From a virus: a DNA stretch of 19,595 bases. Positions within the stretch are counted from its first letter, which is position 1. Every line of letters starts with the position of its first letter. The stretch lies in UHGV virus genome UHGV-0349066; one strand, written 5' to 3'. This document shows positions 186-14,484 of the stretch, piece by piece. The notes under the pieces were generated by a model. That model did not search any database. It saw only the letters and a program-made list of their open reading frames with translations, and had not been told where the DNA came from. The position numbers and the translations under genes are program-made.

Positions 186-614
186 TTAGCTGTAGTTGTG
201 CTTAAAGAACTCTAAAGCACGCTGGTCGTTTGTAATCGCCGTTGTGGACATTCGTTTTAACGCTTGGCGGCAGTAAGGGTCATTCAGAATACGTTGCTGC
301 CAAGCATTGACTATTTCCGTCACTGTTTCCCCTTCTACAGCAGTGTTAAGTTTATCGAGACAGTGTCGGCCTAACAGAAACGCAACCGCGTAATCGGTAA
401 ACATCTCTGTGCCGAAAGGACCGTCGGGATAATCGCAACGTTTACGTACTGACGTTGCGGTAATGGAGTTATATGCGGTTTTTATTATCTCGTGAAATTG
501 TTCCACAGTTAAGACGTTAACGTCAGTACCTGAAAGCGTAAGTGAAGCCAGTACAGGAATACTGGCTGGATACTTACGGATATAATCACGCAAATCTGAA
601 TTGAGTGTTTTCAT
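186..614 (-). CDS. hypothetical protein (142 aa)
   Basis: ORF with ATG at 614; AAAGGGG Shine-Dalgarno about 8 nt upstream; start lies inside the 3' end of the upstream gene (29-nt overlap). Confidence 0.6.
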   Translation of the reverse strand: MKTLNSDLRDYIRKYPASIPVLASLTLSGTDVNVLTVEQFHEIIKTAYNSITATSVRKRCDYPDGPFGTEMFTDYAVAFLLGRHCLDKLNTAVEGETVTEIVNAWQQRILNDPYCRQALKRMSTTAITNDQRALEFFKHNYS

Positions 615-1443: not shown

Positions 1444-1710
1444 TTAAATCGCACGTTTAGCAGTAATGGTACTGACGATTTCGCACACCATATTGAACAT
1501 TTCCTCATCGGTACGTACTGCGACAGTATAGCCAATATCGATAGAGTCTTTACGGAAACCCATAAAGAACAACGCACCGAAGTGTTTGCGGAACGCTTTA
1601 TACAGCGCATCTTTTTCATCTTCGGTTAATACGTAGTCTAGTTCAACAGTAAACTTGTAATCTTCTTTAGAAACGAATTCTTTAGCATAATCAGCTTTAG
1701 TGAAGTTCAT
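1444..1710 (-). CDS. hypothetical protein (88 aa)
   Basis: ATG at 1710 preceded by AGGAGA Shine-Dalgarno; located downstream of promoter-like motif and hairpin at 1739-1780. Confidence 0.6.
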   Translation of the reverse strand: MNFTKADYAKEFVSKEDYKFTVELDYVLTEDEKDALYKAFRKHFGALFFMGFRKDSIDIGYTVAVRTDEEMFNMVCEIVSTITAKRAI

Positions 1711-1738
1711 GGTATATTCTCCTAAAATGGTTCGTTAA

Positions 1739-1786
1739 GTGAGAGCTTTTGTACTCTCACCTAAGTAATATATATCTGAAATTATT
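1739..1786 (-). promoter_or_regulatory. phage promoter-like motif TCAGATATATATTACTTAGG followed by 5'-proximal hairpin (copy 2)
   Basis: Motif at plus 1761-1780; hairpin GTGAGAG / CTCTCAC at 1739-1760; AT-rich upstream flank; precedes the gene starting at 1710. Confidence 0.4.
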
Positions 1787-1790
1787 TTTA

Positions 1791-2072
1791 TTAAAATCCC
1801 GCAATAAAACTGCCTAGCGAGACACGCTGTAGGTATTTTGGTTTGCGTGCCAGGTAACAGTTCTTAGGATTACCTATTGCCATCTGTGCAACTGCACGTT
1901 CTAAACGCGGCGCTTCTAAGATGGCACGATAGTTCCCTTCGTAATGCATTAACCACGCACACTCTTCAACGAAACGTTTTGCTTCTCGGTATTCTAACGT
2001 ACGAATACGTTTCTTACCACGATACAAAACCACATCACCATTACTACGAAATACAACTGTTTCACGCTTCAT
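1791..2072 (-). CDS. hypothetical protein (93 aa; start refined from ORF track)
   Basis: ORF-track start at 2093 is GTG without a ribosome-binding site; internal ATG at 2072 has GGGAGG 6 nt upstream and overlaps the TGA of the upstream gene (ATGA-type coupling). Confidence 0.6.
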   Translation of the reverse strand: MKRETVVFRSNGDVVLYRGKKRIRTLEYREAKRFVEECAWLMHYEGNYRAILEAPRLERAVAQMAIGNPKNCYLARKPKYLQRVSLGSFIAGF

Positions 2073-2650: not shown

Positions 2651-3016
2651 TTAAATCTCCACCGTGGTTCTTTCAGTTTCTTTAATAAACTTACTGAGCG
2701 AATCATTTAAACGTTTTACTCTTTCACCAAACTTAACCATCGTGTCGTAAAGATTCTGTGCTGTAGCATTAAATAGAATCGGACCGTTTTTCAATTCCAA
2801 GGCAGAAACTAGATAGTATTCAGCATTGAAGATTGCTCCTCCCTCGCGCCCTATTCTAACAACTACATTACGAACTTGTACGTTTTGCAATCCTCCATTT
2901 GCTAACGTAATAATTTCTGTATACCAGTCACCTGATTTAACTACTGTTTGGACATTCTTACCGCAAGCCCAGGTTTTAAACGAATCGTTTAACCAATATT
3001 TAATTTTGTTCAGCAT
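2651..3016 (-). CDS. hypothetical protein (121 aa)
   Basis: ORF with ATG at 3016; packed 3 nt from the upstream stop. Confidence 0.6.
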   Translation of the reverse strand: MLNKIKYWLNDSFKTWACGKNVQTVVKSGDWYTEIITLANGGLQNVQVRNVVVRIGREGGAIFNAEYYLVSALELKNGPILFNATAQNLYDTMVKFGERVKRLNDSLSKFIKETERTTVEI

Positions 3017-3019
3017 ATT

Positions 3020-3328
3020 TCATTTACTTCTTACATTATCTCTTAAATTAAAAAATTCTTGTAACGAGCCCAGAATTAAATGATCTCTCATGTAAGGAAG
3101 TCTTTTACCGTACAATCTACGCTTAGGTTTTCCTTTTAAGATTCCCCCGGTAGAGTAAACGTCTATCACAACATCTCGAACCATGACTGTGTATTCCTTT
3201 CCAAAACGAATCACTGTTTCTTCATGGGGTTCGGATTCCGATACAACCTCTTCTACAATACGGCCGTAAAACAAAGAAAAGGCAATTTTGTATAGTTTGG
3301 CTTTAAGAATAATCAAAATACCGTGCAT
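3020..3328 (-). CDS. hypothetical protein (102 aa)
   Basis: ATG at 3328 with GGGAGGAG Shine-Dalgarno; the Shine-Dalgarno partly lies in the stem of the hairpin at 3342-3365. Confidence 0.6.
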   Translation of the reverse strand: MHGILIILKAKLYKIAFSLFYGRIVEEVVSESEPHEETVIRFGKEYTVMVRDVVIDVYSTGGILKGKPKRRLYGKRLPYMRDHLILGSLQEFFNLRDNVRSK

Positions 3329-5070: not shown

Positions 5071-5514
5071 TTAAATCATACCTGGGAATTCGAAATCGAT
5101 TTTATCTAAAAGTTTGTAGTCATCTTTTAGCTGAAGCATCAGTGTATTCTTAAACAGCTCAAGTGAACCGATAAAGTAAGCCGTATAGCAGCTACCACGA
5201 ACAGAAAAGGAAACAGCCAACGCTCTTAAACACTGTTTCAAGATTTCATGTTCTTCAGCGGTACCGAACAACTGGAAATTGATGACGGTAATCTGTTTAT
5301 TAATGATCGCCGATAACCATTCTTTAATTCTTCTTGTGGTTATACGTTCTTTGAAATCACTAGCTTCTGGCAACCAGGTAATGTGTACAAATGGGGCAGC
5401 ATAGTCGACGAGAACTTTTTGCTGCCAACGTACTTGCATCAAACCACGAATACGGTTTGCTAACGTTTCAGAATCACAAAGTAACATAATGCCGTTAGTA
5501 GTATTTGGCTTCAT
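5071..5514 (-). CDS. hypothetical protein (147 aa)
   Basis: ATG at 5514 overlapping the TGA of the upstream gene (ATGA). Confidence 0.65.
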   Translation of the reverse strand: MKPNTTNGIMLLCDSETLANRIRGLMQVRWQQKVLVDYAAPFVHITWLPEASDFKERITTRRIKEWLSAIINKQITVINFQLFGTAEEHEILKQCLRALAVSFSVRGSCYTAYFIGSLELFKNTLMLQLKDDYKLLDKIDFEFPGMI

Positions 5515-6362
5515 AATTGCCCTTCCTTCTTAATGTAATCTTCAACCAACTTATCAAACACGATTTTTATTTTCTCGCGTTCTTCTTCACCCAATTCACC
5601 AGAACAGGTTAGCCCATTTATCTTCCCGTACCGTAATTCCAACACATACTTCAACCGATGACGTAAGGCTTGTTCAAAATGCGTCGGGATATAGATCGGT
5701 TCGAAGTTGTGTAATAAAGTAAAATTGTCTTCGGTGTGTTTAGGGGGTTCGAATTTTACTTTATCTAAGATAGTAAGCCAACGGTGTCTGTCGACTAACC
5801 GATCGTCCCAATATACCGGTTTTGTCTTAGAGGGAGTAAGTGTATTGTAGTTACTGGAATCAGAGACACGGAAATTTGCCGTGACATAAGTCTTCGAGAG
5901 TAACGAGAGAAGACAAATCGTGCCTTCTTCAGGGTAGCTTAAAAGCTCCCCGAGTATGTCTTTAGCTTTCTTGAAGTAGTCTCTAATATAGTCTTCAGCA
6001 ATTGGCTGAATTTCTACTTCTATAGCGCTAATTTGAGGTCCGTCTATCCGTAAAGGAAATTTTAGCTCAGCTTTATATTGCCTATCCGACGTATAAGCGC
6101 GTGTAACAATAGGGTACGTAACAGGCTTAGCTAAATGACGATATTCATCATCTCTAATGACTGAGTAACGTCCAAACCCACCTTTATTCGATTTTGAAAA
6201 AGCGTAAAGGTCTTTTAGATACTCCAGATACTGGCCATCGGTCATTTCATCGGTATTAAATTCACGAATATAAAGTCGTTCAACAAATCCCTTTGTTTGT
6301 TCGTAGTAATAACTGGGGTCCCTATTTGCTAGAATGTGCGGGAGATAATACGGGTGTGGCAT
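5511..6362 (-). CDS. hypothetical protein (283 aa); first gene after terminator and promoter-like motif
   Basis: ATG at 6362 with AAAGGAGG 5 nt upstream; preceded by hairpin and TCAGATATATATTACCTAGG motif. Confidence 0.7.
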   Translation of the reverse strand: MPHPYYLPHILANRDPSYYYEQTKGFVERLYIREFNTDEMTDGQYLEYLKDLYAFSKSNKGGFGRYSVIRDDEYRHLAKPVTYPIVTRAYTSDRQYKAELKFPLRIDGPQISAIEVEIQPIAEDYIRDYFKKAKDILGELLSYPEEGTICLLSLLSKTYVTANFRVSDSSNYNTLTPSKTKPVYWDDRLVDRHRWLTILDKVKFEPPKHTEDNFTLLHNFEPIYIPTHFEQALRHRLKYVLELRYGKINGLTCSGELGEEEREKIKIVFDKLVEDYIKKEGQL

Positions 6363-6389
6363 CTAATCCTCCTTTAGGCTATAACTAAT

Positions 6390-6440
6390 AGAGCGAATGT
6401 AAATTTCGCTCTCCCCTAGGTAATATATATCTGAGAAAAA
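6390..6440 (-). promoter_or_regulatory. phage promoter-like motif TCAGATATATATTACCTAGG followed by 5'-proximal hairpin (copy 1)
   Basis: Minus-strand motif (plus 6417-6434) directly downstream of the terminator T-run; 8-bp hairpin AGAGCGAA / TTCGCTCT at 6390-6412; near-identical motif plus a different hairpin at 1739-1780. Confidence 0.4.
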
Positions 6441-6481
6441 ATAAAAAAAAGAAAGGTAGTAGGGGCTTAGCCCCTACTACC
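6435..6481 (-). terminator. rho-independent terminator ending the fibre/adhesin gene block
   Basis: 12-bp stem GGTAGTAGGGGC / GCCCCTACTACC (6455-6466 / 6470-6481), loop TTA, followed on the minus strand by TTTCTTTTTTTTATTTTTT. Confidence 0.8.
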
Positions 6482-6487
6482 TAAAAA

Positions 6488-7108
6488 TTATTTCATTCCG
6501 TTCTGAGAAAGCGTTGTCCCTGTAAGATGCTTAATAACGATCTTAACAGGTAAATTACTATTCTCGTATTGTACTTCGGTTTCAGACAAATCGGTGATAT
6601 CGATAACTTTAGAGGGTAACTTCGCTAAAACAACACGAATGGTGTGGGTTATTGTACCCGCTGTGGTTTTTGTACCACTAACGTAGAAGTACGCATCAAT
6701 AATACCACCATCTGCTGCCAGGTAAACCAATTTATTTTCCAACAGACACTGGCTATAAATTGACACTCCAGATAATTGCGTAACACCCAGCCTGTTATTA
6801 ACGTCAACCGTTGTTTTGCAGATTACCGCACCACCTGTCAACGTTTTTTCTACCACCATATTTCCCGATAAGGTTTTTGCATCCATTTTTGGTATAATCG
6901 GATGAGCGCCGTCAACAAACAACCCATCGTTGTTAGACTTAAGGATGTTATTCGCCGACGGACTCACTGTAACCTCGGTACCCCCTAATTTCTCAATCGG
7001 GAGTTGGTATTCAGTTTGTTCCTTAGACGCTAAGACTACTACACCCGTGATGTCTTCTGAAAGTGTCTCCAGTTCATGAATGCGCACCTTTCCTACCAGT
7101 TCAGCCAC
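6488..7108 (-). CDS. short fibre-like protein sharing the N-terminal anchor domain of the long tail fibre (206 aa)
   Basis: GTG start at 7108 with GGAGGT 5 nt upstream; N-terminus MAELVGKVRIHELETLSEDITGVVVLASKEQTEYQLPIEKL aligns with the long-fibre N-terminus MAKAVKKIRLHDLRPYTGDIGEGVLLFSKDERDYQLPVREI. Confidence 0.7.
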   Translation of the reverse strand: MAELVGKVRIHELETLSEDITGVVVLASKEQTEYQLPIEKLGGTEVTVSPSANNILKSNNDGLFVDGAHPIIPKMDAKTLSGNMVVEKTLTGGAVICKTTVDVNNRLGVTQLSGVSIYSQCLLENKLVYLAADGGIIDAYFYVSGTKTTAGTITHTIRVVLAKLPSKVIDITDLSETEVQYENSNLPVKIVIKHLTGTTLSQNGMK

Positions 7109-7722: not shown

Positions 7723-8166
7723 TTAACTGATTTTGAAATCTCTTAACGTACCAGTTGATTTCATCACGTTTTGGAACGCGGCACTAATGTTGTTGGTCCA
7801 GTAATAATGTTGACCATTAATAACCTGTTGATAAGTCAACGTACAAGTATTACCACCCAGGTTTACAGTAATGTTAGAAGCTCTCCCACCTTGTAAGTAA
7901 ACCGCTAAAGTAGGCTTTGCGTTGGTAAATATCGTCGTTAACTGTAACTCGATACCTACTAAAGTTCCCACCCCGCAGTTACCCGCGTTTTGAATGGTCC
8001 CCTGATTTTTCTGGTTTAACGGCCAGTTTGGTCCTACTGCACCCCATTTATTACCTAAGGAATCGCTATATGCGGCAGTTGCAATTTTACAGCCCATTGA
8101 TCGTCCCACCATTTGACTCATCATAAAAGGTCTACCCAATCCTAATTTACTACCCGCAGCGCTCAT
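7723..8166 (-). CDS. gp38-like adhesin paralog with divergent C-terminal domain; N-terminus apparently disrupted (likely extends to ATG at 8225 across a frameshift)
   Basis: Minimal ORF from ATG 8166. The in-frame sequence upstream back to the stop of the preceding gene encodes VDGVASGWVGSSARNETGEQW, homologous to the N-terminus of the 8242..9024 product; AAGGAGG plus ATG at 8225..8223 is in another frame, separated by a G4 run. Confidence 0.55.
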   Translation of the reverse strand: MSAAGSKLGLGRPFMMSQMVGRSMGCKIATAAYSDSLGNKWGAVGPNWPLNQKNQGTIQNAGNCGVGTLVGIELQLTTIFTNAKPTLAVYLQGGRASNITVNLGGNTCTLTYQQVINGQHYYWTNNISAAFQNVMKSTGTLRDFKIS

Positions 8167-8241: not shown

Positions 8242-9024
8242 TTAAACACGTGAACCGTATATTGCACCTACTGCGTCCCATCTTGGCGCATTACCAGTAA
8301 CAGCTTTACCAGCTGCTCCGCCGTTATATTCTGTACCGTTACCATGAGTATTACATCTTCCTCCAGCAGCACCGACATTACCACCCGAACCGCCTGTATA
8401 TGCACTAAGAGACCCCTCACCAACAGATCCTTTACCAGGAGCGGAAATAGTACCAGCAGTTGCACCGGAACTCATATGAGAGGAAGACCCGCCAGCACCG
8501 AATGGGCGACCACCGCCACCACCAAATATTAGTCTACCCCTGTTACCGCCACCACCGCCGCCACCGCCTCCGGCAATAGCGCCACGGTTGGTTATACGCA
8601 GTCTGTTTCCTATTCCGTTCTGTATTGCGGTTCCACCTGCACCGCCTGGTGAGTTAGAACCGCCGTTGCCTCCTCTGCCGTATACTGTAACCCCAGGATT
8701 GATAACGAGTGTAATGGAGGAGTTCGGTAGGTCGCCAGGGAACTCTAAACAAGGAACTCCGCTACTATAAGACACTAAATCCCCCGTAATAGTCACAACG
8801 ACAGCAGTAGAGCCTAAAGAACGTAAATAGTTAATAAGAGTATCCTTATTATAGCTATGGTTAGCACCAATAGAATAATGGACCTCTTTTGATTTTCCCG
8901 CCAATTGCGACATCCAGCCTGGAACCGGCACACCAAGTGTGCGCATCGCGCCAGACATCCATTCGTTACCAGCTTCAGCTTTTGCTGAAGAACCAATCCA
9001 ACCACCTACGCCGACAACTGCCAC
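8242..9024 (-). CDS. T2-type gp38-like tail-fibre tip adhesin, glycine-rich (260 aa)
   Basis: GTG start overlapping the fibre TAG stop (TAGTG) with GGGAGA Shine-Dalgarno. N-terminus MAVVGVGGWIGSSA...WMSQLAG and motifs ITGDLVSYS, YGRGGNGG, AIAGGGGGGGGG, GGGGGRPFGAGG match my recollection of T2/K3-type gp38 adhesins with glycine-rich motifs. Confidence 0.75.
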   Translation of the reverse strand: MAVVGVGGWIGSSAKAEAGNEWMSGAMRTLGVPVPGWMSQLAGKSKEVHYSIGANHSYNKDTLINYLRSLGSTAVVVTITGDLVSYSSGVPCLEFPGDLPNSSITLVINPGVTVYGRGGNGGSNSPGGAGGTAIQNGIGNRLRITNRGAIAGGGGGGGGGNRGRLIFGGGGGRPFGAGGSSSHMSSGATAGTISAPGKGSVGEGSLSAYTGGSGGNVGAAGGRCNTHGNGTEYNGGAAGKAVTGNAPRWDAVGAIYGSRV

Positions 9025-12000
9025 TAGGATCTCCCTTTGATTTCGTTAACCTCTTGACGCAACGCTTTCATACCCTCTACTAACAGCGCAATAACACCAT
9101 TGTAGTTTAGACGTAAACGTTTTTCGCCTGAAATGACATCATCATCCTCAGACACAAGTTCAGGTAACGCTTCTAATGCGTCTTGAGCAATTAGACCTAC
9201 AGAGGTCTGCCAGCCGTCGTCAGGATGCTGAATTTCGTACAAATAACCGGTTAGTAACTCTAACCGATCCAAAGCTTTATCTAGTTTCACCAGATTACGT
9301 TTGTTACGACGGTCAGAACGAATCTGTACGTCGTTAAACGAACCGTTACCGCTGCCAGTAACGTTATGACCAAAGGTTACTTGACCGTTAGCATTATTAA
9401 AATACAACGGACGTAGACCGTTCCAGGAACCCGTTGCAGCTTGACCGGCGTCGGTTACTAAGAAATAGGTATTGGCACCATCGTTACGTAACATAAAGCC
9501 GTAGTTGCCGTAAGCGATTCGAAAATCAGGGTACTTAGTGACCAATTTACCGTTAACGGTTAAATCGCCACCTATAGTACCGCCCCCTGACGGTAACGCA
9601 CCGATGTCACCAGCGTTAGGCTTGTTGTGTGTGCTGTAAATCAGATAGACGGTACCGTCTGTTAGTCCTGCGGGTTTATTAGCCGTATAACTTGGCGATG
9701 TATGAATCGTTACGTTGGCATTACTAGTGTAATCCCACTGAATAGTAACACCGGTGGCGTAATTACCTATTTCAACATAAATATCGTAAGTGTCACCAGA
9801 TGTATTCACCCATGCAAAATTAGCGAAGCCGACTGAAGTCAGTCGCCATAACGCACCAGTAATACCTTTTGGATTCCCATTTCCTGCACGCAGAACCAGC
9901 TCAGAGATACCTGCTTGATGTGGGGAACCAACGTTAAACCCTGCACCACCAATCATGCTTATGTAAACCACGGAACTGGCTTGCGGCATCGTTACAGTTG
10001 CCAGTTTGAACCATCCGGCACCACCATTAAAAGACACAGTTGTTGTGTTCGCGGCACCAACATTTCGTAAGAATTTTCTCTTATCTGGAATATCGGCACC
10101 ATTCTGTTTCTTCTGCAATGACCCACCGGCCAATTCTACAGTTTGGCCAAGATTTAAACTTTCAGCCGTTATTTCGATGTTTTTGGTGCCGTCAAATGCG
10201 ATACCGTTAATGGTACGCGCTGTCTGCAATTTTGTTGCAGTGGCCGCGTTTCCGGTGGTCGACTGATTGCCCGTTTGGTTTACGCCAGGTAAGTTGATGT
10301 CTTTAGTACCATCAAAAGCTACACCACCTATATTTCGCGCAGTCTGGAGCTTAGTCGCTGTCGCGGCATTCCCCGTAGTCGATTGGTTACCGGTTTGGTT
10401 CACACCGGGCAGACTAATGTCTTGCGAACCGTCAAAGTTAACACCACCGATCTTACGTGGCGTTTGTAACTTAGTAGCGGTCGCTGCATTACCTGTCGTA
10501 TTCTGGTTACCTTGCTGGTTAACCCCCGGTAAATTGATATCCCCAGTACCGTCGAAGGTAACGCCCCCGATTCTGCGAGCGGTTTTCAGTTTCGTCGCGG
10601 TAGCGGCGTTGCCAGTAGTATCCTGATTACCGGTGGTATTTACACCAGGAATACTATCACGGGCAGTATAAACTTGTGCCCAATCTGACCACGGCGCATC
10701 CGCTGTATCACGTCGACTACGAATATAAACGGGTGCGTGCGCACCACTCGTGCCCGACCAACCAATTAACAGCTCACCTTCACCTAATGCGGCAGAACCA
10801 CCCAAATGCAGCAAGTTACCATAAGCGGTCGGATAACCGTTATTGTAAACTTCGTACATCTGAATACCAGGCGTACCTTTGTTTGAACCGGTTAGTGCAG
10901 TAACCCGACCACGACCTACCAGGGTGTTGATATTGATGTCAGCAGAACCATCGAATCTTACACCGTTAATATTTCTGGCGGTTTGAAGTTTAGTGGCTGT
11001 ACCAGCATTACCCGTGGTGTTTTGATTGCCCTGTTGGTTAACACCTGGGAGGTTAATATCACCACTACCGTCGAAAGCGACTCCACCAATTCTACGTGCG
11101 GTCTTTAATTTCGTTGCGGTTGAAGCATTGCCTGTTAACTCGCCTGCTAACCCTTTTGCAAAGGTCTGTTTTTCTGCCCAGGTGTGTGCTGCATTCAATA
11201 CAGGCATCTGTCGTGGTGTAATCGTACGACTACCTTTCTCACCAGCGATACGTACTGCAAAGAATCGATAGTTGGCAGTAGACACCGTACTACGCCAAAC
11301 CAACATACTCCGGCCTGATGTAGCGCCATCTGATGGACCAACCAGAATGCTAACTAGGTTACCGTCAATAACACCCCAATCCATTCCCGTAGGAATGTTT
11401 TTCATGGTGTTAAGCGGCGTACAGATTAACTCACCCGGTTTAAAGTCATAGGTTTGCCAGTCTAAAGGATCAACATTCGCACGTTCACCGCCGATACCTA
11501 ATACCAGCGGAAGCGAATACGATGTGAAAACCTCACGCCAATCGCTCCAAGCGTTACCCGTACGGATACGTTGAAATTTACGACCTTTAGTTTCTGTACC
11601 CGTACCGTAAGTAGTATAATTCTGTTCGACCCCTGTACCGTCTAAGCGTAAGGTAACTTCACAAACGCCTAATATGGTTTCACCAGAAGAACCGGTAAGT
11701 GGACCGTTAGTTGCTTCACCAGTGACACTGAAACGTCCCGGTTTAACGAGATCGTTAAAATTGGCTTTAAAGAAAGCACCGTCAGTCTGATAACCAACCT
11801 GAATCCAATCTTCCCATTGCGGGTTTGATGAATCCCATGTTGCGGTCAAACCACGAACATACATCGTACCACGACGTGTGGTGTATCGTTGCAACCGTCC
11901 GAAAAGACCACCTTCCATTACTTCTAGTACGCCTTGCGCGCCACCACCTTCTTCAGGGTAATGTCTGCTAAAAACAGCCAGCGAACTGCTTGAGTTTCGC

Positions 12001-13625
12001 CAGTTACCCATATGCTCAGCGCCACCCAAACTGTTCAAGTCTATAGCGGTAGATAATGGACGTACACCAGTAGTTACCATTCTCCACGGTGACCAGGGTC
12101 CATTGGCACCATTCCACTCGCCACTCAGCATACGGTTGTACACGTTACCATTACGACAGGTAAAACGCTGTGCGCCACTGTAATTACCGGCTTTATACAC
12201 TTCCAGATAACCGACTGCACCGTCTTCTGGGAAATGTTTTGCCATCGACGCATTGGTTGACGTCGACTTAGCCCACGTTCCTGTGTAATTGGCATCTGGA
12301 GCAAATGTGTTAATATCAGCATCTACAGGCATTTCGCCACGGAAACGCAGATAAGTGTCAGGAGACAGACCGATATTGCGAGCAAACGTTTCTTTATCTG
12401 GGATATCAGCGCCGTTAGAGTTTTTCTGTAACGCGCTATTCGCTTTATCTACAGTGGCTTTTAATCCCAAGAAATTGATGATATCCGCAGTTGACCCTTT
12501 CGCTAACAAGGATCTGGCCGTTTCTGTAAAATCCGTTAATCCGACTTTATTACTGCCAGTGAAATACATGAGTTTATTTGCCGCTGTGGTGACTGCGGCA
12601 ATGGCGGTGAGCAACGGACTGAGGGGTTGTTTCTGCGCAAGTTCCCCAGTAATCGTTGTTGCGAAGTTAGGGTCATTACCTAACGCCTCAGCTAATTCCG
12701 CTAAGGTATTTAACGTCTCGGGTGAAGAACCAACCAGTTCCGCAATCGCGTCACGCACCCAGGCCGTTGTGGAAATACTCGTGTCGTTTGAATCTTTCGG
12801 GGGTGTTGGGGATGACGGTTTACCCGTAAAATTCGGCGAATGTTTATTGGCTTTTAACTGTAATTCGTCATTCAGCTGTTTAACCGTGGACGGTGTGGCA
12901 GCCTCAGTCACGGATTCGCTAGTCAGCGTATCGTTAAGTTTAACGATACCTTTACCGGTTGTACTAGCGTCGATTAAGCCCTGCGCAGCGATTTTCTCCG
13001 CACGTAAGGCAGCTGACTCCGAACGTGTTGCTGCGCCCTCTGAACTTTCTTTATCTTTCGCGACCTGTGCAGCAATCTTCTCCACTGCGCCCTTACTGGC
13101 CTCAACTGAAGCCGCAGTATTCTCGACACCGGTAGCCGTCTGTTGGACTTGTCCGGCCTGTTGCGTAACCGTTTCTGCTTTCTTAGTTACATCAGCCGCT
13201 GCAGCCGTCACCGATTGTTCGCTTGTGGCGACAGCTTGAGCTTTCTCATTTACCGACTGTAATACAGTATCTACGGCAGTTTTCGCGGCTAAAACTTCAG
13301 CGTGTTTTTTGTTAACCTCAGCAGTTTTAGTGGCAACGGTTCCCGCTTGCTCGCTAACGGTGGAAGCTAACGTGTCAGTTTGTTGCTTCGCTGTTTCTGC
13401 TAAGTCTTTTGCTTGTGTGGCTTCTGTTGCAGACTGTTGTGATTTGGCCGCAGCCGTTTGTGCGTCAGCAACCGCGTTTCTGACGGTGTCAATATCCGCA
13501 ACAATCTCGCGGACAGGTAACTGATAATCCCTTTCGTCTTTCGAAAAAAGTAAAACGCCTTCACCGATATCCCCGGTGTATGGACGTAAATCGTGTAAAC
13601 GAATTTTCTTTACCGCTTTAGCCAT
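9024..13625 (-). CDS. long (L-shaped-type) tail fibre protein with C-terminal intramolecular chaperone / autoproteolytic domain (1533 aa)
   Basis: ATG at 13625; Ala-rich coiled-coil stalk; fibre motifs TLNTLAELAEALGNDPNFATT; 40-aa tandem repeats (GNAATATKLQTAR..FDG..DINLPGVNQ); C-terminal SDRRNKRNLVKLDKALDRLELLTGYLYEIQ...GLIAQDALEALPELV...NYNGVIALLVEGMKALRQEV typical of peptidase-S74-type chaperone domains. Confidence 0.9.
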   Translation of the reverse strand: MAKAVKKIRLHDLRPYTGDIGEGVLLFSKDERDYQLPVREIVADIDTVRNAVADAQTAAAKSQQSATEATQAKDLAETAKQQTDTLASTVSEQAGTVATKTAEVNKKHAEVLAAKTAVDTVLQSVNEKAQAVATSEQSVTAAAADVTKKAETVTQQAGQVQQTATGVENTAASVEASKGAVEKIAAQVAKDKESSEGAATRSESAALRAEKIAAQGLIDASTTGKGIVKLNDTLTSESVTEAATPSTVKQLNDELQLKANKHSPNFTGKPSSPTPPKDSNDTSISTTAWVRDAIAELVGSSPETLNTLAELAEALGNDPNFATTITGELAQKQPLSPLLTAIAAVTTAANKLMYFTGSNKVGLTDFTETARSLLAKGSTADIINFLGLKATVDKANSALQKNSNGADIPDKETFARNIGLSPDTYLRFRGEMPVDADINTFAPDANYTGTWAKSTSTNASMAKHFPEDGAVGYLEVYKAGNYSGAQRFTCRNGNVYNRMLSGEWNGANGPWSPWRMVTTGVRPLSTAIDLNSLGGAEHMGNWRNSSSSLAVFSRHYPEEGGGAQGVLEVMEGGLFGRLQRYTTRRGTMYVRGLTATWDSSNPQWEDWIQVGYQTDGAFFKANFNDLVKPGRFSVTGEATNGPLTGSSGETILGVCEVTLRLDGTGVEQNYTTYGTGTETKGRKFQRIRTGNAWSDWREVFTSYSLPLVLGIGGERANVDPLDWQTYDFKPGELICTPLNTMKNIPTGMDWGVIDGNLVSILVGPSDGATSGRSMLVWRSTVSTANYRFFAVRIAGEKGSRTITPRQMPVLNAAHTWAEKQTFAKGLAGELTGNASTATKLKTARRIGGVAFDGSGDINLPGVNQQGNQNTTGNAGTATKLQTARNINGVRFDGSADININTLVGRGRVTALTGSNKGTPGIQMYEVYNNGYPTAYGNLLHLGGSAALGEGELLIGWSGTSGAHAPVYIRSRRDTADAPWSDWAQVYTARDSIPGVNTTGNQDTTGNAATATKLKTARRIGGVTFDGTGDINLPGVNQQGNQNTTGNAATATKLQTPRKIGGVNFDGSQDISLPGVNQTGNQSTTGNAATATKLQTARNIGGVAFDGTKDINLPGVNQTGNQSTTGNAATATKLQTARTINGIAFDGTKNIEITAESLNLGQTVELAGGSLQKKQNGADIPDKRKFLRNVGAANTTTVSFNGGAGWFKLATVTMPQASSVVYISMIGGAGFNVGSPHQAGISELVLRAGNGNPKGITGALWRLTSVGFANFAWVNTSGDTYDIYVEIGNYATGVTIQWDYTSNANVTIHTSPSYTANKPAGLTDGTVYLIYSTHNKPNAGDIGALPSGGGTIGGDLTVNGKLVTKYPDFRIAYGNYGFMLRNDGANTYFLVTDAGQAATGSWNGLRPLYFNNANGQVTFGHNVTGSGNGSFNDVQIRSDRRNKRNLVKLDKALDRLELLTGYLYEIQHPDDGWQTSVGLIAQDALEALPELVSEDDDVISGEKRLRLNYNGVIALLVEGMKALRQEVNEIKGRS
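10134..10613 (-). repeat. four tandem ~120-bp coding repeats within the tail fibre gene (40-aa units GNAATATKLQTAR.IGGV.FDG..DINLPGVNQ.GNQ.TT)
   Basis: Protein residues about 1005-1164 show period-40 repeats; the DNA copies differ mainly at synonymous positions. The ORF track shows the repeat as mirrored plus-strand ORFs 10006..10266 and 10267..10626. Confidence 0.8.
10893..11132 (-). repeat. two further copies of the 120-bp fibre coding repeat
   Basis: Protein residues about 832-911 (GNASTATKLKTARRIGGVAFDGSGDINLPGVNQQGNQNTT, GNAGTATKLQTARNINGVRFDGSADININ...). Confidence 0.75.
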
Positions 13626-13706: not shown

Positions 13707-13828
13707 CTGGTTTTAATCCATCATCTTCTAACGTGAAAGTGATGCCCAACTCCGCGCTTCATGATTTGGGATTGTTAAGTTTTGATAAATGTTTGCTTTG
13801 ACCTCCATTACCGGTAAAACGGTCAAGT

Positions 13829-14389
13829 TCATGTAGCCGGGTTTTCTTCAGCTGTGTCGTCATCTGGAACCTCAAAGGTAAGAACAGCATCATCACCAAT
13901 ACAGAAGATCGCGTCATCTTCGTTTGCTAATGCTCGTTCGGTTGTATCGAATAACGTTACCATAAACGCATTCATCCACGCAGGAGAATCGTCAGCAACG
14001 TTAACAGCAATGGGTTCGTTACCTAAGGTGATATCTGCAGCACGTAAATCTTCGGGTTGTAAGTTCGTTCCGCAGAATTCATTTACAACACCTAAAATGT
14101 CACGAAGGTTGTCTTCGGTACCATCTAACGAAATCAAAATAGGTTCAGACGCTAACACTTCGTCCGCATCCAAACGGTCGTAATAAACAACCACAGAAGC
14201 ACCATCAGGTTTCCTGATTTTTGTAATCTCTGTCAGTGTGTTACGACGCGAAGTGGTCGGGGACGGGTTTGCCATAGTGTTGCTAATACGGATTTCGTTT
14301 AGAGACAACCGTGAACCGTTATCGTGGTTGATTAAAGCGACCACTAATTCGGCTGAGGCCAGACTTAAATCAGGTACGTAAGTAGTCAC
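13829..14389 (-). CDS. hypothetical fibre-associated protein, paralog of the 7111..7623 product (186 aa; start refined)
   Basis: GTG at 14389 with GGGAGG 5 nt upstream; start position matches the paralog start (MTTYVPDLSL vs MEQFTPDLSL). The ORF-track N-terminal extension to 14458 is the translated terminator hairpin and T-run. Confidence 0.7.
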   Translation of the reverse strand: MTTYVPDLSLASAELVVALINHDNGSRLSLNEIRISNTMANPSPTTSRRNTLTEITKIRKPDGASVVVYYDRLDADEVLASEPILISLDGTEDNLRDILGVVNEFCGTNLQPEDLRAADITLGNEPIAVNVADDSPAWMNAFMVTLFDTTERALANEDDAIFCIGDDAVLTFEVPDDDTAEENPAT

Positions 14390-14404: not shown

Positions 14405-14450
14405 CAAAAAAAAAATAAAAACACCTACCGCCCATAGAATCGGGCGGTAG
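14405..14450 (-). terminator. rho-independent terminator, 6 nt upstream of the ribosome-binding site of the 13829..14389 gene
   Basis: 9-bp GC-rich stem CTACCGCCC / GGGCGGTAG (14425-14433 / 14442-14450), 8-nt loop, then GTGTTTTTATTTTTTTTTT on the minus strand. Confidence 0.75.
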
Positions 14451-14484
14451 GCAGTCATTTTACAGCTAAAAATCGAAGTAGTTA

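Follow-up and report, generated by a model that had tools for sequence, protein, structure and literature searches.

A gene for a short protein with the N-terminal module of the long tail fibre probably encodes a minimal accessory receptor-binding protein in an SPN3US-like giant phage

The last gene in the fibre block of an SPN3US-like giant phage encodes a protein of 206 aa. It is probably a minimal accessory receptor-binding protein (RBP), that is, a stub fibre made of two exchangeable modules. The gene is found in the window, by which is meant the whole 19,595-nucleotide stretch of virus genome UHGV-0349066 that was analysed; all long ORFs of the window are on the minus strand. The first module (residues 1-46) would be a lineage-specific plug which is present on every RBP of the SPN3US-like giant phages and which fixes these proteins to the outer (peripheral) baseplate. 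The second module (residues ~47-206) would comprise a short neck and a beta-sandwich tip; elsewhere, this tip forms the distal end of long trimeric fibres. The most likely ligand of the tip is a structure on the host surface, probably a saccharide. Stub and long fibre would be expressed from one late operon bracketed by terminators, and the stub fibre would sit on the virion beside the long fibre and its gp38 adhesin. There it would add a second specificity, which lineages can gain and lose. Since the proteins that bear this tip family are obligate trimers, the stub fibre is probably a homotrimer; for the 206-aa protein, trimer formation is inferred, as are docking and receptor binding. The features of the fibre region are listed in Table 1.

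Table 1. Features of the fibre region in the window (all on the minus strand)
Feature	Position	Strand	Basis
Intrinsic terminator after the 206-aa gene, closing the fibre operon	6454..6482	-	13-bp stem, 8 GC pairs, loop of 3, T-run
206-aa gene (proposed stub fibre)	6488..7108	-	ORF list; GTG start, TAA stop
Neck (~47-75) and predicted beta-sandwich tip (~76-200) of the 206-aa protein	6491..6970	-	Neck motif SxxANNxLxxxxDGLFV...HPIIPK; conserved C-terminal GTxLSQNGM
N-module (plug) of the 206-aa protein, residues 1-46	6971..7108	-	BLASTP and profile matches
DUF7941 paralogue b, 170 aa	7111..7623	-	PF25613 E=5e-17, 62.6 bits vs cutoff 27
Second gp38-like ORF	7723..8166	-	Gp38_N profile positions 21-40 only; phrog_1121 E=1e-32
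gp38-type adhesin of the long fibre	8242..9024	-	PF05268 E=2e-69
Long fibre, 1533 aa	9024..13625	-	Phage_fiber_2, Gp34_trimer and C-terminal Peptidase_S74 domains
N-module of the long fibre, residues 1-46	13488..13625	-	Match to the N-terminus of the 206-aa protein
Relic of a third N-module gene (SPN3US gp123-like), 34 codons, MTTQLKKTRLHELDRFTG...	13759..13863	-	Profile E=1e-7, module positions 1-21
DUF7941 paralogue a, 186 aa	13829..14389	-	PF25613 E=1e-18; start corrected to GTG 14389
Terminator 5' of the fibre operon	14422..14453	-	13-bp stem, 8 GC pairs, T-run

Sequence comparison places the window with the SPN3US-like giant phages, which are of the chimallivirus type. The genes flanking the fibre block are syntenic with those of two phages, SPN3US of Salmonella and Asesino of Erwinia, and share 39-65% amino-acid identity with them. 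The window aligns over 68% of its length, at 85% nucleotide identity, to NZ_CP134650.1, a record that is circular, 222 kb long and annotated as a plasmid of Enterobacter ludwigii. This record (L015-L019) is syntenic with the fibre region of the window; its genes include those for a family B DNA polymerase, for an S80 morphogenetic protease and for six DUF7941 paralogues. It appears to be the genome of a giant phage that the isolate carried or that was co-assembled with it.

The fibre block is a single unit between two strong terminators. In the direction of transcription, the upstream terminator is followed by DUF7941 paralogue a, the relic ORF, the long fibre, gp38, the second gp38-like ORF, DUF7941 paralogue b, the 206-aa gene and the closing terminator. 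The strong terminator that the sequence-only reading had placed immediately after the 206-aa gene is thus present (6482..6454, read on the minus strand). The same reading had made this gene the last of the fibre block. This is the case in the window but not in the relatives L002 and L003, where a further fibre gene comes after it. The ORF as called for DUF7941 paralogue a (209 aa, to 14458) is too long, because the upstream terminator (14453..14422) sits within its first codons; a GGGAGG-GTG at 14389 gives the start MTTYVPDLSL, which is the same as in L005 and relatives.

The 206-aa ORF is not a chance artefact. It has 20 homologues (51-100% identity, mostly 205-206 aa); most are full length, and start and stop are conserved. 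Their sources are gut metagenomes and assemblies of Salmonella, Shigella and E. coli, in which they lie on contigs of ~170-226 kb. The GTG start is also sound, since GGAGG is found 7 nt upstream, homologues have ATG at the equivalent position, and the register is that of Met1 of the fibre.

The gene directly upstream of the 206-aa gene encodes DUF7941 paralogue b, which passes the Pfam gathering threshold and covers positions 3-166 of the 276 in the PF25613 profile. Its stop codon lies 2 nt ahead of the GTG, and the 206-aa gene is translationally coupled to it. A DUF7941b gene or domain is found upstream of every 206/205-aa gene for which upstream DNA was seen. In L005 (8067..10001), and also in L006 and L007, DUF7941b forms residues 480-634 of a 644-aa ORF and the 206-aa gene comes directly after. 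The first ~470 residues of this ORF match the C-terminal part of fibre families phrog_13714 and phrog_7032; the ORF is a fibre fragment joined in frame to DUF7941.

The similarity between the N-termini of the 206-aa protein and the 1533-aa fibre, for which the sequence-only reading had quoted correct peptides and coordinates, holds in both pairwise and profile alignment. Residues 1-41 align without gaps, with 17/41 positions identical (41%) and 29/41 positive (BLASTP, E=2e-8 for this single pairwise comparison); every other segment of the two proteins gives E>1. A profile made from both N-termini finds the module at the start of proteins from related genomes, with E-values of 1e-22 to 1e-27. 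It heads five classes of protein: the 206/205-aa proteins, the long fibres, and proteins of 273 aa, 153-156 aa (including SPN3US gp123) and 710 aa. Positions M1, K7, R9, H11, L13, V24, L26, S28 and Y34 are invariant over the five classes.

The module is ~46 residues long and ends near residue 47 in all five classes. Past this point, each class runs into the C-terminal part of another fibre family. In the 206-aa and 273-aa proteins, where the junction falls at residues 44-48, the remainder corresponds to positions 684-841 of the 842 in phrog_33169 (residues 47-205, E=4e-28) and to positions 347-568 of the 568 in phrog_2636, respectively. These alignments mark out the plug as a discrete and apparently exchangeable module with a sharp boundary. 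As in modular RBPs, the N-terminus is conserved among several RBP genes and a sharp junction leads into the distal fibre parts of other phages. Relatives have between one and five plug-bearing proteins per genome; there are five in L003, two and a relic in the window, and one in SPN3US. In the complete 222-kb relative genome the plug is confined to the fibre block.

The plug matched no Pfam family. A scan of IMG/VR found it at seven loci, all in the same group of Seoulvirus/Erskinevirus-like phages, and a census of plug architectures by word-indexed protein search returned nothing beyond fragments of 31-74 aa. Plug-only mini-ORFs of 43-74 aa are called on several other contigs (P0053, P0056-P0060), one of them 225 kb long, which suggests that relics or truncated plug genes are common in this phage group.

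Plugs of different classes are 32-59% identical and show no sign of homogenisation. At the DNA level, the plugs of the 206-aa protein and the long fibre are 47% identical, and their third codon positions agree at just 8/41. This similarity must be old and kept at the protein level; recent duplication or gene conversion is ruled out as its origin. The two plugs are the products of an old paralogy under protein-level selection.

Other origins for the plug found no support. It could have been a sequence mimic of the DUF7941 tail or linker, which docks onto the next protomer in the model for phage Goslar; however, the plug showed no similarity in hhalign to DUF7941 proteins in any of their parts, including the C-terminal tail and linker. 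It could also have been a diverged form of the 'LPxAxxLTGxExFPVVQ' N-terminal motif of other tip-domain proteins. Here hhalign gave the expected register, but with E=0.059 and a probability of 0.9%. Weak matches by tblastn in Felixounavirus (E 0.1-1) were put down to chance, as they lie in the C-terminal end of a protein annotated as hypothetical, among other small hypothetical genes and with no tail genes near.

The nearest described system is found in SPN3US. Gp123 of this phage (156 aa; phrog_9017, 'tail fiber protein') has the N-module in common with the 206-aa protein (E ~1e-24 to the profile). Its gene lies directly after, and overlaps, the short DUF7941 gene gp122, and the 206-aa gene likewise follows a DUF7941 gene. 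The likeness ends with the module; just residues 1-41/43 align, and past residue ~47 the two proteins are unrelated. Phrog_9017 is not found among the PHROG matches of the 206-aa protein, and the two are not homologous over their whole length. Their downstream neighbours also differ. After the gp123 gene comes that of gp124, a large plug-less protein (1005 aa, tail-associated); after the 206-aa gene comes a terminator. SPAsTU and Asesino have the same three-gene layout as gp122-gp123-gp124, and in both the gene at the DUF7941-like place is annotated 'virion structural protein'. The order of DUF7941 followed by plug, with the genes overlapping or coupled, is found in the related contigs and also in SPN3US, whose DUF7941 was confirmed.

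Both gp123 (SPN3US_0123, 16.5 kDa) and gp124 (113.7 kDa) are listed in purified SPN3US virions without a 'Head' flag (PMC5694885, Suppl. Table 1). By analogy, the presence of gp123 suggests that the plug belongs to the tail-associated structural proteins. The interpretation of the module as a virion attachment domain is reasonable and is now better supported than when it was proposed: the plug is placed proximally in a fibre that is marked distally by S74 and gp38, it has a discrete junction, and it occurs on a protein found in virions.

The design of a shared anchor with exchangeable tips is already established; it is the plug and tip families that are new. Klebsiella phages of the anchor-branch type reportedly have several RBPs per genome, in which the N-terminal anchor is conserved and the C-terminal domains can be exchanged. 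In the Ackermannviridae, the branched tailspike complex is likewise said to comprise several RBPs with a conserved N-terminus and unrelated distal parts. The plug proteins resemble both in having a short common N-terminus, a sharp junction, and distal parts that are gained and lost horizontally. The plug differs from these anchors in its sequence, which is undescribed and has no Pfam family, and in its host virus, a giant phage of the chimallivirus type.

The DUF7941 paralogue directly upstream is the best candidate for a socket. According to a preprint on Goslar (2026), DUF7941 is specific to chimalliviruses; its members are proposed to be associated with the peripheral baseplate and to oligomerise head to tail, their N-domains accepting a peptide from the next protomer. 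The same preprint reports that attachment of tail fibres to the peripheral baseplate could not be resolved in the PhiKZ and Goslar structures. The candidacy of DUF7941 stems from these proposed peptide-accepting N-domains and from the DUF7941-then-plug gene order. The plug could then be a ligand of DUF7941's globular N-terminal domain, with the upstream short DUF7941 protein as its socket, but this proposal is tentative and on present evidence somewhat doubtful. SPN3US gp122, the upstream DUF7941 protein, is absent from the proteins detected in wild-type virions; moreover, the SPN3US authors proposed from PSI-BLAST that it may belong to paralogue family B, the members of which they take to be head proteins. 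Both points argue against a DUF7941 socket. So does the lack of plug-DUF7941 similarity in hhalign, and so does Goslar, in which a short DUF7941 is paired with a fibre that does not match the plug. PDB sequence searches with DUF7941b and with SPN3US gp123 returned noise only.

In Goslar, the short DUF7941 gene gp91 is directly upstream of the fibre gene gp90, which is followed by gp89 (Tfa); the long fibre of the window likewise lies behind a DUF7941 gene. Gp90 does not match the plug profile. Its N-terminus is visibly different from that of the window fibre and, judged by eye from the sequence, looks P1 S / P2 H-like. Goslar is also without a stub fibre. Gp90 shares the shaft of the window fibre (see below) but does not match the plug, which points to exchange of the N-terminal part as a way of adapting a fibre to the baseplate in question. 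If the DUF7941 socket were true, DUF7941 would tie each fibre into the peripheral-baseplate DUF7941 network of chimallivirus-type phages, and a new host specificity could be added by a two-gene cassette consisting of a socket and a plug-tipped binder. It would be the first concrete model of tail-fibre attachment in this virus family.

The sequence-only reading had offered two consequences of a shared attachment domain, namely competition for one docking site or a branched fibre. This choice is too narrow, because relatives carry one to five plug proteins and each 206-aa gene comes with its own DUF7941b. In the case of same-site competition, there would be one type of socket in fixed copy number, stub and long fibres would exclude each other, and virions would be mosaics set by expression levels. 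This is unlikely, although it is the strongest of the alternatives. The 9-10 plug positions that are invariant over five classes and several genera include several polar ones (K7, R9, H11, S28, K29, Y34), which argue for a common partner surface, and the number of plug genes varies from one to five among relatives whose neighbourhoods are otherwise syntenic. On the other hand, the DUF7941b gene or domain that belongs to each 206/205-aa gene could supply an extra site, and the plugs of different classes have diverged without any sign of homogenisation.

The part of the 206-aa protein beyond the plug had been described as unrelated and short. This is correct relative to the long fibre, but the part is a conserved fibre-tip domain, and many unrelated fibres carry it at their C-terminus. 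When 1.84 billion representative proteins were searched exhaustively with a profile, 36 matches at E<=0.001 were obtained. About 30 of these 36 (clusters) align to residues ~44-205 of the 206-aa protein, nearly always up to their own C-terminus. The proteins in these clusters are mostly 181-865 aa long; short forms (181-219 aa), which have other brief anchors at the N-terminus, occur repeatedly. The N-terminal parts include P2-type tail-collar (PF12571) and lambdoid Stf (PF08400) domains, collagen repeats, and YadA head and stalk, all of which are trimeric fibre architectures. Serratia phage BF gp223 (555 aa), other members of phrog_33169 and the proteins P0022-P0055 have the tip domain in common with the 206-aa protein but have long shafts and anchors of these same four types; none has the plug. 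Across these families, the position of the domain at the fibre tip can be regarded as firm.

The tip domain has no Pfam family. AlphaFold2 (AF2) with a shallow alignment of close homologues gave a pLDDT of 33, and distant tip-domain homologues had to be added. The model then obtained predicts an all-beta sandwich for residues 70-200 (pLDDT >90); the plug remains below 50 in this monomer model (residues 1-43). Foldseek matched the tip model to Serratia phage BF gp223 in BFVD (E=4e-13), but gave nothing significant against PDB, and the fold assignment is for this reason only approximate. There is a weak fold-level likeness to H-type lectins (2ccv, 2w94) and to R-type pyocin fibre knobs (6cxb, 6cu2), at 2-9% identity and not significant by Foldseek. 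When the window protein is compared with P0020, a variant with 51% identity, the plug is 78% identical, the neck 69%, the tip core 33% and the C-terminal end 62%. A conserved anchor with a variable tip is a pattern typical of receptor-binding proteins, and the 206-aa protein appears to follow it.

It is improbable that the 206-aa protein is instead an adaptor or branch point, that is, a baseplate-plugged connector carrying another protein, as gp123 presumably carries the 1005-aa gp124. The ancestral plug protein is indeed small (153-156 aa), and the gene after it encodes a plug-less tail protein of ~1000 aa. In L002 and L003, the 205-aa gene is followed by those for a 710-aa protein and a DUF4376 chaperone-like protein, and a gp38-like ORF with a truncated N-terminal domain is found two genes upstream of the 206-aa gene. 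However, the 710-aa protein bears its own plug, and in the window and in L005-L007 a terminator comes directly after the 206-aa gene. The 206-aa protein and gp123 have nothing in common except the plug. The tip domain is nearly always at the C-terminus of other fibres and is never an internal joint, and the tip core is the most variable part of the protein.

It is more improbable still that the 206-aa protein is a non-structural or transient assembly factor whose plug occupies or prepares docking sites, or, in a variant, that its C-terminal domain is a module of the intramolecular-chaperone type rather than a receptor-binding tip: the protein is short and is encoded at the 3' end of the fibre operon, the usual place of fibre chaperones, and fibre C-terminal domains can be cleaved-off chaperones (the long fibre has Peptidase_S74), but it has no Tfa (Caudo_TAP), DUF4376, gp38 or S74 match in Pfam and PHROG, its tip is all-beta and lectin-like in the AF2 model and not of the helical S74 type, the fast divergence of the tip against the conserved plug is the opposite of what is expected for a chaperone, and free-standing tip proteins of ~180-220 aa with other N-terminal anchors recur.

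The stub fibre seems to be an accessory that can be lost. In the Enterobacter relative L001, DUF7941b is followed by just the last 12 codons of the 206-aa gene and then by the terminator, which has been kept although the gene was deleted; the 206-aa gene is therefore dispensable there. L001 8450..8631 aligns to window 6343..6525, and most of a 283-aa gene (window 5511..6362) is also gone. Both losses look like clean deletion scars. The window has suffered a loss of its own, that of its gp123-like gene and of the gene for the ~1000-aa tail protein. These two genes come after DUF7941a, or a like-placed gene, in L001, L003, SPN3US, SPAsTU and Asesino. The relic in the window contains the first ~18 codons of a plug and overlaps the end of DUF7941a exactly like the intact 153-aa gene in L001. 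Together with the extra plug-bearing 710-aa gene and DUF4376 gene of L002 and L003, these differences characterise the fibre block as a site of cassette turnover.

Phages with several RBPs on a common anchor are a natural template for host-range engineering, and the stub fibre would be the smallest complete example, with anchor, neck and tip. Its ~46-residue anchor, clean junction and small size would make it a convenient scaffold for tip swapping in SPN3US-like giant phages of Salmonella, E. coli and Shigella. The plug, in its pairing with short DUF7941 genes, is also a specific candidate interface for the attachment of chimallivirus fibres. Since both are absent from Pfam, the plug and the tip domain are annotation gaps.

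The long fibre is itself a composite. Past the N-module it has an alanine-rich segment, which is probably a coiled coil. Its shaft repeats have 72-75% protein identity to Goslar gp90 (L011 39500..42000 compared with window 9024..13625), and the 3' end of the fibre gene and gp38 have ~85% nucleotide identity to ~110-kb E. coli/Shigella plasmid records (H46-H59). These identities indicate that fibre segments may have been exchanged between unrelated phage types. The gp38 gene has 82-92% nucleotide identity to Krischvirus gp38, and the second gp38-like ORF has a Gp38_N attachment domain that lacks its first ~20 residues. The resulting set is unusual: the fibre has an S74 intramolecular-chaperone end (9024..9400), and this is followed by a gp38 of the T2/RB49 type and then by the second gp38-like ORF.

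Downstream of the fibre block, the window ORFs at 2651..3016 and 3020..3328 (minus strand) are paralogues of each other and both match L001 5852..6241. For the ORF at 186..614, L001 has a paralogue (1476..1907) with 34% identity. These genes appear to form small tandem gene families.
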